Virus genome (UHGV): UHGV-0272730
Strand: one strand, 5' to 3'
Length of the DNA stretch: 64,000 nucleotides
Source of the DNA: a virus
A program made the position numbers and the translations under genes. Shown piece by piece: positions 5,054 through 6,885 of the stretch (positions are counted from its first letter, which is position 1; every line of letters begins with the position of its first letter). The notes beneath the pieces are model-generated. The model was not told the DNA's origin. It saw only the letters and a list, made by a program, of their open reading frames with translations, and ran no database searches.

Positions 5054-5059
5054 AAGTTG

Positions 5060-5087
5060 TTGACATAGAAAATTTGGTGAGTATACT
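5060..5087 (+). promoter_or_regulatory. sigma70-like promoter (TTGACA-16 nt-TATACT)
   Basis: Consensus -35 at 5060-5065 and near-consensus -10 at 5082-5087, directly after the ligase stop. Confidence 0.55.
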
Positions 5088-5123
5088 GAGCAGCATAAAC
5101 CGACGGGTACTCACCAGCATCAC

Positions 5124-5400
5124 TTAAGAGTCTTTTAAAAGGGTTTTTAAGTGATGTCTGGTAAAGTATGGTTCTGTCCGGTAATGCGATGTATGCTATG
5201 GTTTGGTGTGGGTAGTTAGTCTCAGCTACATTAAAATGAGACTTACCTTTTTAAAAGGTCTTTAAGAGGGTCTTTTAATGAGGTGGGGTCTGGTTTGGTA
5301 TGGTAATGCGAGGTATGGGTCAGGTGGGGTGAGGTGTAGTTAGGTCTGGTATGGGTGGATGGTAGTAGCCACATTAAAAATCTACCAAGTTTCTAAAGAG
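5124..5400. repeat. GT-rich repeat block A (two tandem modules, about 120-155 nt each)
   Basis: Each module has a near-palindromic AT-rich head (CTTAAGAGTCTTTTAAAAGGG / CCTTTTTAAAAGGTC) and a body with GGT spaced every 5 nt; homologous to block B. Confidence 0.8.
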
Positions 5401-5447
5401 TCTTCTGTTGAGGGTTCTTTACAAACAACTTAACAATCAACTAAAGT

Positions 5448-6050
5448 GTGGAGCTAAATGCTATGAAACTGTTAAATGTCAAAATCACTGGTACTCGTCC
5501 TTTCCTGAGCCATAACGATACACTGTCAGACCCATTAAACCCTCTGACTAAATATCACAAGTCTCTGTCCAGTAAACGTAAAAAGACTGACGAAGACTAT
5601 GCGCTCTTAGCAGAAAGCCAACTGGTAACTTCTTGTTACTACGATGAGCAGCTAGGTTTTGTTATGAACGGTGAGATGATTGAGGCTTGTATCAAGTCTG
5701 GTGCAAAACTCAACAAACTTGGTAAGGTAATTGACCGAGCTATTATGCTGACAGATGTAGTCTTCCCAATGACTATCAAGAACTGTCCAGCAAACCCACA
5801 AGAACTTGCTAAGAACCCAGACTTTATCTATGCTAAGTCTGTTAAGATTGGTACAGCACGAGTTATGAGCTACCGTCCAATCTTCCGTGACTGGTCTGTA
5901 GAGTTCGGTTTGATGTTCGATGAAGAGCAAATTACCAAAGAAGAACTCTTGATGGTTCTGGAAAATGCTGGTAACCTTTGCGGTGTAGGTGATTGGCGTC
6001 CACGCTTTGGTCGTTTTTCTGTAGAAGTTATTTCAGAAGGTAACGTTTAA
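5448..6050 (+). CDS. hypothetical protein (200 aa; GTG start, or 195 aa from ATG 5463)
   Basis: ORF with GGAG upstream; no recognisable motif. Confidence 0.6.
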
Positions 6051-6052
6051 TT

Positions 6053-6493
6053 ATGAATACAAAAGCATTAGCAGCAAAGTTTAGTTACGGTGACACTGTA
6101 TCACACTCTGAGATGGATACCTTCTTAGGTATTGTGAAGCCAACTTATCAAGGTGACATTGTTAAGTACGAAGATGAAATGAAGGCTTATGCGCTTACAC
6201 GTCTAAACCGACTTGAGAAATTTATTGAGAAGCTTCTTAAAGAAGAGAAGATTTATCTGGTTGCTTCAATGGGTGTTGGTTATCGTGTGGTTGAGCCTAA
6301 ACATCAAGCAACTATTGCAAAACGCAAAATGTCTGGTAAGATTGGTCGAGCTTTAAAGCAAGCCACTCAAGCGATTGAGAATGTGAACACTATGGCACTT
6401 AGTCATCAAGAACGTTCACGACTGATTGAACAGCAAAATCACTTAGCTGCTATGAAAGCTAATATTAACAAGCAACGCAGAAAACCTTTCTAA
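6053..6493 (+). CDS. hypothetical protein (146 aa)
   Basis: ORF 2 nt after the upstream stop; followed by a terminator. Confidence 0.6.
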   Translation: MNTKALAAKFSYGDTVSHSEMDTFLGIVKPTYQGDIVKYEDEMKAYALTRLNRLEKFIEKLLKEEKIYLVASMGVGYRVVEPKHQATIAKRKMSGKIGRALKQATQAIENVNTMALSHQERSRLIEQQNHLAAMKANINKQRRKPF

Positions 6494-6503
6494 GTTGACT
6501 AGG

Positions 6504-6528
6504 TAGCCTCTTCGGAGGCTCCTTTTTA
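6504..6528 (+). terminator. rho-independent terminator
   Basis: AGCCTC-TTCG-GAGGCT hairpin followed by CCTTTTT. Confidence 0.65.
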
Positions 6529-6800
6529 AAAGGTCTTTAAAGAGGGTCTTTTAATAAGGTAAGGCACGGTTATGTCAGGTATGGTACGGTACGGTTAGGT
6601 AAGGTGAGGCGGAGTAAGGTATGGGTAGTTAATCGGAGCTACATTAAAATTCGATTACATCACTTAAGAGTCTTTTAAGAGGGTTTTTAAGTGAGGTGTG
6701 GCACGGTAATGTTAGGTAGGGTCAGGTCAGGTCAGGTGAGGTAAGGTAAGGTGATGTATGGAAGGATGGCAGTAGCCTTATAAAAAATCTGCCAAATAAG
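6526..6800. repeat. GT-rich repeat block B (two tandem modules, order reversed relative to block A)
   Basis: Heads nearly identical to block A heads; body contains AGGTC AGGTC AGGTC AGGTG AGGTA AGGTA AGGTG (about 6715-6755). Confidence 0.8.
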
Positions 6801-6812
6801 CTATAAAATCTG

Positions 6813-6847
6813 TTGACAAGTCAGGTGTTATAGCTTATTTTTATACT
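6813..6847 (+). promoter_or_regulatory. candidate sigma70-like promoter (TTGACA ... TATTTT/TATACT)
   Basis: Perfect -35 at 6813-6818; -10 choice ambiguous (17 nt spacer gives TATTTT, 23 nt gives TATACT). Confidence 0.35.
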
Positions 6848-6885
6848 CAATGTAATACAAAATTTAATATAACTTTGAGGTCATT

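Follow-up and report, generated by a model that had tools for sequence, protein, structure and literature searches.

The 64,000-nucleotide viral genome sequence UHGV-0272730, called the window below in its full length, carries two intergenic blocks of GT-rich repeats, A and B, which stand around a pair of genes in the region bounded by the DNA ligase gene (3917-5053) and a gene that begins at 6886. We conclude, with a probability that we put at about 95%, that positions 5060-6845 constitute a type II VIPR (Viral Interference Programmable Repeat) locus of the SUSP1 clade in a Felix O1-like phage, in which the repeats encode guide RNAs and the first gene encodes the protein, Vipr, that reads them. 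VIPR was described in two 2026 preprints from one laboratory (bioRxiv 10.64898/2026.04.26.720920, 10.64898/2026.04.26.720927), and the locus is in this sense already known, being essentially an allele of the published SUSP1 model locus. The window itself is a Felixounavirus: the 5-kb surroundings of the locus match 260 phage records at 80-99% identity, and nearly all of these are Felix O1-like myoviruses (Ounavirinae, Felixounavirus) of Escherichia, Salmonella and Shigella.

Each block consists of two modules (5118-5243 and 5244-5386 in block A, 6519-6656 and 6658-6793 in block B) that follow a common plan: an AT-rich, near-palindromic head of ~39-41 nt, a GT-rich body with a GGT or GGC every 5 nt, and a tail (Table 1). 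The periodicity is confined to these elements. Stretches with at least five of eight GGY triplets (Y, pyrimidine) in 5-nt phase begin at 29 positions in 64 kb, all within the two blocks and all on the plus strand; the same scan found none on the minus strand and none in 50 dinucleotide-preserving shuffles, in which the maximum score was 4 of 8. An initial annotation of this DNA had described much of this architecture, and the heads, tails, periodic GGT and flanking signals that it quoted are all present in the sequence. The run AGGTC AGGTC AGGTC AGGTG AGGTA AGGTA AGGTG is located at 6719-6753, the two head types map in the order alpha-beta in block A and beta-alpha in block B, the sigma70-like promoters at 5060-5087 and 6813-6841 and the terminator hairpin at 6505-6520 score as such, and the absence of any open reading frame of 60 or more amino acids over the blocks holds, the only overlapping frame being one of 43 amino acids on the minus strand. 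Two of its generalisations have to be narrowed. The 5-nt spacing of GGT is not strict throughout, as only 5 of 11 units in A1 have a canonical GGY and A2 has a 1-nt slip at 5317; and the tail motif that it took to be conserved throughout is the loop AGCYACATTAAAA in three modules (at 5224, 5367 and 6637), replaced by the variant AGCCTTATAAAAA in the last (at 6774). The first gene, which it began at GTG 5448, starts instead at ATG 5463, giving a product of 195 amino acids that aligns with SUSP1 Vipr from residue 1.

Table 1. Features of the VIPR locus in the window and of orphan guides in relatives without vipr. Labels beginning with L denote the related loci used for comparison; hairpins and pseudoknots are predicted.
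Feature	Position	Strand	Description
sigma70-like promoter serving block A	5060-5087	+	TTGACA-16-TATACT; 11 of 12 consensus matches
Head alpha-1	5118-5156	+	RNA hairpin of ~16-19 bp with G.U pairs, directly 5' of the A1 tract
vrRNA A1	5155-5243	+	11 units (5155-5209, only 5 with canonical GGY), then tail 5210-5243
A1 tail parts	pseudoknot 5212-5215 with 5226-5229; hairpin 5218-5224 with 5237-5243	+	
Head beta-1	5244-5283	+	RNA hairpin, 12 bp + 4 bp, loop UAAG; 16 pairs
vrRNA A2	5282-5386	+	7 units (5282-5316), extra G (5317), 7 units (5318-5352), tail 5353-5386
Degenerate head-like remnant	5387-5425	+	follows the last tail of block A and precedes the vipr ribosome-binding site; repeat D6, CTAAAGAGTCTT, at 5393-5404; read directly
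vipr	5463-6050	+	minimal RAMP (RRM core, G-loop, thumb); 97% identical to PDB 36pp_D
vap1	6053-6493	+	VIPR accessory protein; its positional counterpart in the SUSP1-like locus L019 is 99% identical
Intrinsic terminator after vap1	6505-6527	+	hairpin 6505-6520, then a T run that is the start of head beta-2
Head beta-2	6519-6559	+	RNA hairpin (fold)
vrRNA B1	6558-6656	+	13 units (6558-6622), then tail 6623-6656
B1 tail parts	pseudoknot 6625-6628 with 6639-6642; hairpin 6631-6637 with 6650-6656	+	
Head alpha-2	6658-6696	+	RNA hairpin (fold)
vrRNA B2	6695-6793	+	13 units (6695-6759), then terminal-type tail 6760-6793
B2 tail parts	pseudoknot 6762-6765 (AAGG) with 6776-6779 (CCUU); hairpin GGCAG/CUGCC	+	
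Long hairpin closing block B	6794-6845	+	19-nt arms, then a T run; inverted repeat I3 and fold
sigma70-like promoter of the next gene	6813-6841	+	10 of 12 consensus matches; overlapped by hairpin 6794-6845
Orphan guides, radambza	L035:1040-1260		
Orphan guides, Bas63/JohannRWettstein	L037:760-1180		
Orphan guides, Salmonella phage ST11	L038:650-900		

The protein encoded by the first gene identifies the system. It matches PDB chain 36pp_D, 'SUSP1 Vipr protein', with an E value of 9e-128 and 97% identity (five differences in 195 residues), and a profile of its family retrieved one solved structure, PDB 36pp, at E 1e-79. Since the SUSP1 clade is delimited by more than 90% protein identity to SUSP1 Vipr (bioRxiv 10.64898/2026.04.26.720920, 10.64898/2026.04.26.720927), this places the window within that clade. 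Of the 14 residues that the structure preprint names as contacts, 13 are conserved in place (H17, K33, R39, E71, M72, K82, G87, K88, R138, C173, D177, W178 and R179); the fourteenth, given there as 'T175', is V both in 36pp_D and in the window protein and is probably a slip in the preprint text. An AlphaFold2 model, of pLDDT 94.9, has Csm3 and type VII Cas7 chains as its matches (E ~1e-4). The family, which is without a Pfam domain, counts more than 500 members among phages and prophages. The product of the second gene, vap1, is phrog_5926 and had no match in Pfam and NCBIfam, and neither protein matched a family of known function in Pfam, NCBIfam or PHROG. With Rfam, only tRNAs were found at the gathering threshold, and the region itself gave one chance microRNA hit (E 0.97). 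In the GenBank records of relatives both genes are labelled 'hypothetical', and the blocks are unannotated or carry repeat_region, 'DR_4' or predicted promoter and terminator features.

The preprints present Vipr as a minimal RAMP and propose that it predates the RAMPs of CRISPR systems; its guides, the vrRNAs, are ~100-nt products of the intergenic regions around vipr in which 9-16 YNNGG units, with frequent internal degeneracy, are followed by an invariable pseudoknot tail of ~40 nt (bioRxiv 10.64898/2026.04.26.720920, 10.64898/2026.04.26.720927). In SUSP1 the vrRNAs are expressed and co-purify with Vipr, which polymerises on the RNA at one protomer per unit such that GGY is buried, each triplet being held by the protein in the cryo-EM preprint, and NN is exposed (bioRxiv 10.64898/2026.04.26.720920, 10.64898/2026.04.26.720927). 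The exposed dinucleotides pair with double-stranded DNA with one target base skipped per unit, so that GGTAAGGTCC reads nAAnCC; binding represses transcription of the target, and vap1 enhances protection (bioRxiv 10.64898/2026.04.26.720920, 10.64898/2026.04.26.720927). Within the SUSP1 clade, 18 of the 20 guides with identifiable targets match a satellite phage in E. coli genomes (bioRxiv 10.64898/2026.04.26.720920, 10.64898/2026.04.26.720927).

For the present phage we infer the mechanism from SUSP1 by near-identity. The four modules would be transcribed from the plus strand and matured into vrRNAs of ~100 nt, along whose repeat tracts Vipr protomers would polymerise, one per pentamer, burying GGY and presenting the two variable bases. 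Such a filament would bind double-stranded DNA wherever the dinucleotides recur with one skipped base (guide GGYNN to target xNN), forming a gapped R-loop that would silence transcription, with the hairpin-pseudoknot tail capping its 3' end and Vap1 enhancing the effect. All of the features of VIPR that can be addressed by computation are found here: Vipr itself, clade-level identity, arrays of units, the GGY/NN pattern, the tail, a vap gene and targets.

In guide bodies and tails the features that define VIPR could be reproduced independently. Among 76 distinct modules taken from 21 related loci, with 8-16 units per guide, the first three positions of the pentamer are G in 77%, G in 96% and Y in 99%, and positions 4-5 are near even in composition; across related loci, GGY is thus fixed and NN is hypervariable. 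The final unit before the tail is AT in 62 of the 76 modules and is mismatched in the best target of B1, and could be part of the tail and not of the guide. Tails of the related modules fall into four types plus a satellite variant. All have in common a hairpin of 5-7 bp, whose stems are wholly different between types yet complementary, and a pseudoknot of 4 bp that joins the bases immediately before the hairpin, on its 5' side, to the hairpin loop (GUAG/CUAC, GUGG/CCAC or AAGG/CCUU). The covariance analysis proposed in the initial annotation bears out both helices: pairing holds in 91.9% of cells, both partners change in 9 of 11 pairs, and controls with slid pairings reach at most 38%. The pseudoknot helix is 100% paired and three of its four pairs covary, the number of events being small as there are only four or five independent tail types.

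Targets were sought by comparing the window guides with seven satellite loci under the 1-nt skip rule, and three of the four guides match the satellite at 91-96% of NN positions. B1 finds 23 of its 24 NN positions at L028:19608 and L029:14577, in a noncoding region upstream of the satellite's vrRNA, and B2 finds 22 of 24 at L032:7652 (21 of 24 in L030 and L031), inside a coding sequence of 107 amino acids; for each of the two, none of 300 shuffled guides did as well. A1 matches at 20 of 22 NN positions (L032:6801) inside a coding sequence of ~236 amino acids, annotated as a transposase in some genomes, with the skipped bases on the codon wobble position. When all 76 guides were compared, 42 reached at least 85% NN identity with a skip of 1, three of them perfectly, whereas none reached 85% with a skip of 0, 2 or 3. 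The central targeting claim of the preprints is therefore reproduced with different data and code. No self-target was found in the window, where the best 1-nt-skip match (19 of 26) equalled those at control skip lengths. Exact gapped patterns of B2 (10 NN) and B1 (11 NN) found no match among IMG/VR viral contigs; the targets were later found in E. coli chromosomes.

The targeted element is an integrated satellite of ~11 kb that encodes a large serine recombinase, baseplate and tape-measure proteins and small genes, and includes a noncoding stretch of 2 kb. It has no vipr, and its single, solo vrRNA gene (L030:14990-15095) is served by a sigma70 promoter and a terminator of its own. The copy at L030:5350-16100 is accompanied by similar elements in L029 and L031-L034, including variants with HNH or methyltransferase genes, and the family, which is diverse (80-90% identity), occurs in 541 of 5426 complete E. 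coli genomes. Integration sites include wrbA-ymdF, a DUF72 gene next to yecD, and tonB-yciI, and the element is often broken by insertion sequences. A BLAST search of complete E. coli genomes with the locus matched 42 chromosomes, in each case over a body-plus-tail segment only, which corresponds to the satellites' own vrRNA tails. On the computed matches, the guides of the window are directed at this satellite, which makes the locus a phage weapon against a parasite of the phage.

Several points weigh against this interpretation. Function rests on two preprints that are not yet peer-reviewed, on near-identity to their model, and on computational reproduction. Six of the 11 units of A1 are non-canonical, and the 6-nt unit in A2 should break the register of a filament. 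A2 is also targetless in the satellite loci: neither half by itself nor the two halves joined with junctions of 0-4 nt gave anything above background, and in the seven loci no window guide has a perfect target. The target of B1 is noncoding, and the skipped bases of B2 fall on codon position 2 and not on the wobble position. Finally, the role of the heads, which the preprints do not address, has its support in predicted folds with their G.U pairs, in a single covarying pair and in the apical-loop insertion described below.

Alternative explanations were considered against the same evidence. The blocks might be a cis-acting leader and trailer or a sponge like CsrB/RsmZ, whose AGGU motifs, resembling Shine-Dalgarno sequences, sequester CsrA, the 30S subunit or another host factor. 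The many AGGTG and GAGGT motifs on the transcribed strand and the position of block A between a promoter and the first gene would suit such a role, and CsrB/RsmZ sponges and TRAP leaders with (G/U)AG sites are indeed noncoding RNAs in which regularly spaced, short purine-rich motifs meet a multimeric protein reader. In those systems, however, motif and structural context are different, and here it is the intervening bases that carry information and the motif that anchors the protein. The core, GGY instead of GGA, occupies an unstructured tract and not hairpin loops, no Rfam match to CsrB, RsmY or RsmZ appears at the gathering threshold or at E values up to 1, and a sponge would not be expected to have hypervariable interposed bases that match a foreign element in a gapped register, or to adjoin the gene for a solved vrRNA-binding RAMP. 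We regard this explanation as very improbable. Of the functions raised in the initial annotation, noncoding modules linked to the genes that they flank and acting as structured, protein-binding RNA stand; titration through Shine-Dalgarno-like motifs does not, the RNAs being guides for a RAMP filament. The class of element, which that annotation did not recognise, is now known: the system is VIPR, with a protein 97% identical to that of the model.

Equally improbable, in our estimation, is that the blocks are functionless recombination repeats at the boundaries of a mobile two-gene cassette. Here the observations on gene content are genuine: about half of the related phages are without vipr, which is matched in 130 of the 260 records, three vipr-less genomes retain one or two modules precisely at the point expected from recombination between the blocks, and module number varies from one to three per block. 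The initial annotation had listed this possibility, and the part that survives is the presence or absence of the genes between the blocks (vipr in 130 of 260 records, with three vipr-less loci read in detail), a pattern that arises because the blocks recombine with each other. Gene loss is accounted for in this way, but conservation of GGY, hypervariability of NN, covarying tails and matches to targets are not, and distant vipr homologues have unrelated arrays of like design.

A role at the level of DNA, as iterons, an origin or partition site, or a protein-binding array, is less probable still. Tandem short repeats adjoining AT-rich palindromes in intergenic DNA are compatible with it, but the signal is strictly one-stranded, G.U pairs are required in the helices of heads and tails, which covary as RNA, the variable bases follow targets in a different genome, and a 5-nt unit with only three fixed bases is unlike iterons, whose copies share nearly the whole unit. 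Hardly more credible is that the (GGN3)n tracts are G-quadruplex elements in RNA or DNA: on sequence grounds GG at 5-nt spacing could form two-tetrad quadruplexes, but the pyrimidine at the third position and the second G at 96% suit a protein pocket better than quadruplex rules, each GGY is held by Vipr in the cryo-EM structure, and quadruplexes are unneeded to explain strandedness, G.U hairpins, NN hypervariability or gapped matches. Several early candidates, namely TRAP-like (G/U)AG sites and Csr-type sponges, antisense Rho rut sites, Chi-like or RecA-preferred GT tracts, T7-type primase sites and G-quadruplexes, were dropped once the Vipr protein had been identified.

The association of arrays with vipr extends beyond the clade. 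A search of IMG/VR with the product of the first gene returned 18 close relatives and six distant ones (37-40% identity). Close relatives invariably have the two blocks, each of one to three modules, with very different body sequences; the SUSP1-like L019, on a contig of 90,743 bp, has one module upstream and three downstream, which is the published SUSP1 layout. Four of the six distant relatives have no DNA similarity to the locus, yet the gene sits among (GGYNN)n arrays, and we conclude from this that array and gene belong together. In L027:2875-4320 GGY/NN arrays lie before vipr, between the two genes and after both, and L022, L025 and L026 are further examples. These distant homologues, on metagenomic viral contigs of higher GC content, are without heads and tails of the Felix type and probably represent other VIPR architectures.

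Heads of both types are predicted to fold as long RNA hairpins with 16 pairs, several of which require G.U, and for this reason only a transcript of the plus strand can form them. Nearly all changes seen in 15 variants of alpha and 28 of beta keep the pairing: among the alpha heads one pair covaries (UA in 6, CG in 5, UG in 4), and in the beta heads every change retains pairing via G.U. In one alpha variant (L001:~3300-3350; also L010, L014 and L018), an insertion of ~26 nt, AAATTATATTCGATAGAGTATCTCAT, falls exactly in the apical loop and leaves the arms intact. The heads were also considered as sigma70 promoters and rejected, as a consensus scan does not call them and the 26-nt insertion suits a hairpin better than a promoter with fixed spacing. 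Head type tracks the preceding tail, the internal tail stem AGUCUCA being followed by beta and AAUCGG by alpha; this coupling explains the inverted order of heads in the two blocks that the initial annotation had pointed out. In block A the only good promoter precedes the first body by ~95 nt, and a vrRNA of ~100 nt consists of body plus tail; therefore the head must be removed or excluded. We consider it probable, on the basis of these predicted folds, that the heads are processing or filament-boundary signals. Tail and head together might act as a separator of guides in a polycistronic precursor, in the manner of a CRISPR repeat, with the head setting the 5' boundary.

Some guides are irregular. 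The A1 copy with only 5 of 11 canonical GGY recurs in two relatives, and an identical copy of A2 is found in L012 only. In A2 the 6-nt unit (GGTATG, followed by GGTCA; 5312-5322) has its extra G directly after the body-tail junction motif GGTATGGGT, which suggests that two guide bodies could have been fused at GGTATGGGT by deletion of a tail-head unit. A1, with its degenerate GGY, and A2, with its phase slip and lack of a target, may be decaying or recombinant guides. In the second module of Bas63 (L037:~1000-1090) the two-unit block GGTTA-GGTAT is present four times in tandem, and a homologous guide elsewhere (e.g. L003:3305) has it once; this looks like an expansion by slippage of units, a possible source of variation in guide length.

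Three phages without vipr-vap, radambza, Bas63 and ST11, retain the promoter, a head, one or two bodies and a terminal tail, whereas Mooglevirus Sf13 has nothing at the position of the locus. The orphan vrRNA of radambza matches a satellite site at 20 of 22 NN with the 1-nt skip. Such orphans may be remnants of deletion, or guides that use Vipr in trans. For the biogenesis and turnover of guides we offer, tentatively and in the expectation that it is clearly likelier to fail than to hold, a joint reading of a head-tail repeat-guide array, recombination-born guides and trans-loaded orphans. The head and the preceding tail might form a repeat unit of ~75 nt that is cut by a host double-strand RNase or serves as a filament stop. 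New guides might arise through unit slippage and intermodule recombination, as the A2 fusion and the Bas63 expansion could illustrate. Orphan vrRNAs might be more than debris and, like the solo vrRNA of the satellite, be loaded on Vipr supplied by co-infecting phages.

The signals that flank the blocks show some further peculiarities. The promoter at 5060-5087 probably also drives vipr-vap1, and the same promoter stands upstream of the modules in the SUSP1-like L019 and in vipr-less relatives. The hairpin that closes block B contains the -35 element of the next gene's promoter, TTGACA, in its loop and the -10 element in its 3' arm, with the consequence that termination of block B and initiation of the next gene are physically interlocked. 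Just 5' of the vipr start, UGUGGAGCUA (5441-5462) is nearly complementary to the loop of the A2 tail, UAGCCACA, ~70 nt upstream; this may be chance, or may link guide folding to translation of vipr. Elsewhere in the window, 26 tRNA genes are clustered on the minus strand at 34402-40187, two tRNA-Met and two tRNA-Gln genes among them. A tRNA gene cluster is typical of Felix O1-like phages.

In comparison with the SUSP1 type II locus, the window shares a Vipr that is 97% and a Vap1 that is ~99% identical to SUSP1-like homologues, the promoter, head, tail and terminator sequences, GGY/NN guides, hairpin-pseudoknot tails, and guide matches to the same E. coli satellite family under the 1-nt skip. 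It differs in having 2 + 2 modules where SUSP1 has 1 + 3, in its guide sequences, and in the presence of one phase-slipped guide and one with mostly degenerate GGY; the preprints describe neither the head hairpins between guides nor the orphan guides of vipr-less relatives. The repeat_region and 'DR_4' annotations of wV8 (NC_012749) and bumzen (MN850635) mark the same sequences as direct repeats flanking two genes, but are descriptive only and assign no RNA, protein partner or function. With class 1 CRISPR-Cas systems, in which Cas7 or Csm3 assembles on crRNA, the locus has in common a RAMP (RRM core, G-loop, thumb) that forms a filament on its guide with periodic base flipping, and a variable guide part capped by a conserved, structured part. 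In contrast to those systems, the period of VIPR is 5 nt, with three bases buried and two read, the guides pair in a gapped register and have no contiguous (skip 0) match above background, the system is phage-encoded, and its guides are not spacers captured between identical repeats. No cas gene was found when the two genes of the unit and one neighbour on each side (four genes) were scanned against family libraries, the upstream neighbour being the DNA ligase and the downstream gene matching no family, and no nuclease was seen in the region read. The locus is not a CRISPR system, as its pairing is non-contiguous and its two genes have no cas-family match.

In VIPR, a mode of RNA-guided DNA recognition reported only recently, a gapped dinucleotide code is read by a filament of a minimal RAMP, and the system has been proposed as an ancestor of CRISPR effectors (bioRxiv 10.64898/2026.04.26.720920, 10.64898/2026.04.26.720927). 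The window adds no new principle to this; it shows that VIPR can be recognised from raw sequence alone, and through it the published targeting rule has been independently reproduced with 76 guides of Felix O1-like phages and seven E. coli satellite loci. Pfam, NCBIfam, PHROG, Rfam and GenBank still label all parts of VIPR as hypothetical or as 'repeat_region'. Cocktails for phage therapy and biocontrol make use of Felixounaviruses. The practical value of the finding lies in annotation, with vipr in about half of the related records and the targeted satellite in ~10% of complete E. coli genomes. The new points are minor: the head hairpins, the coupling of head and tail types, the phase-slipped fusion guide, the orphan guides, and independent confirmation of the targeting rule. 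Among them, the head hairpins, the fused and degenerate guides and the orphan guides are leads on how these phages make and replace their guides.

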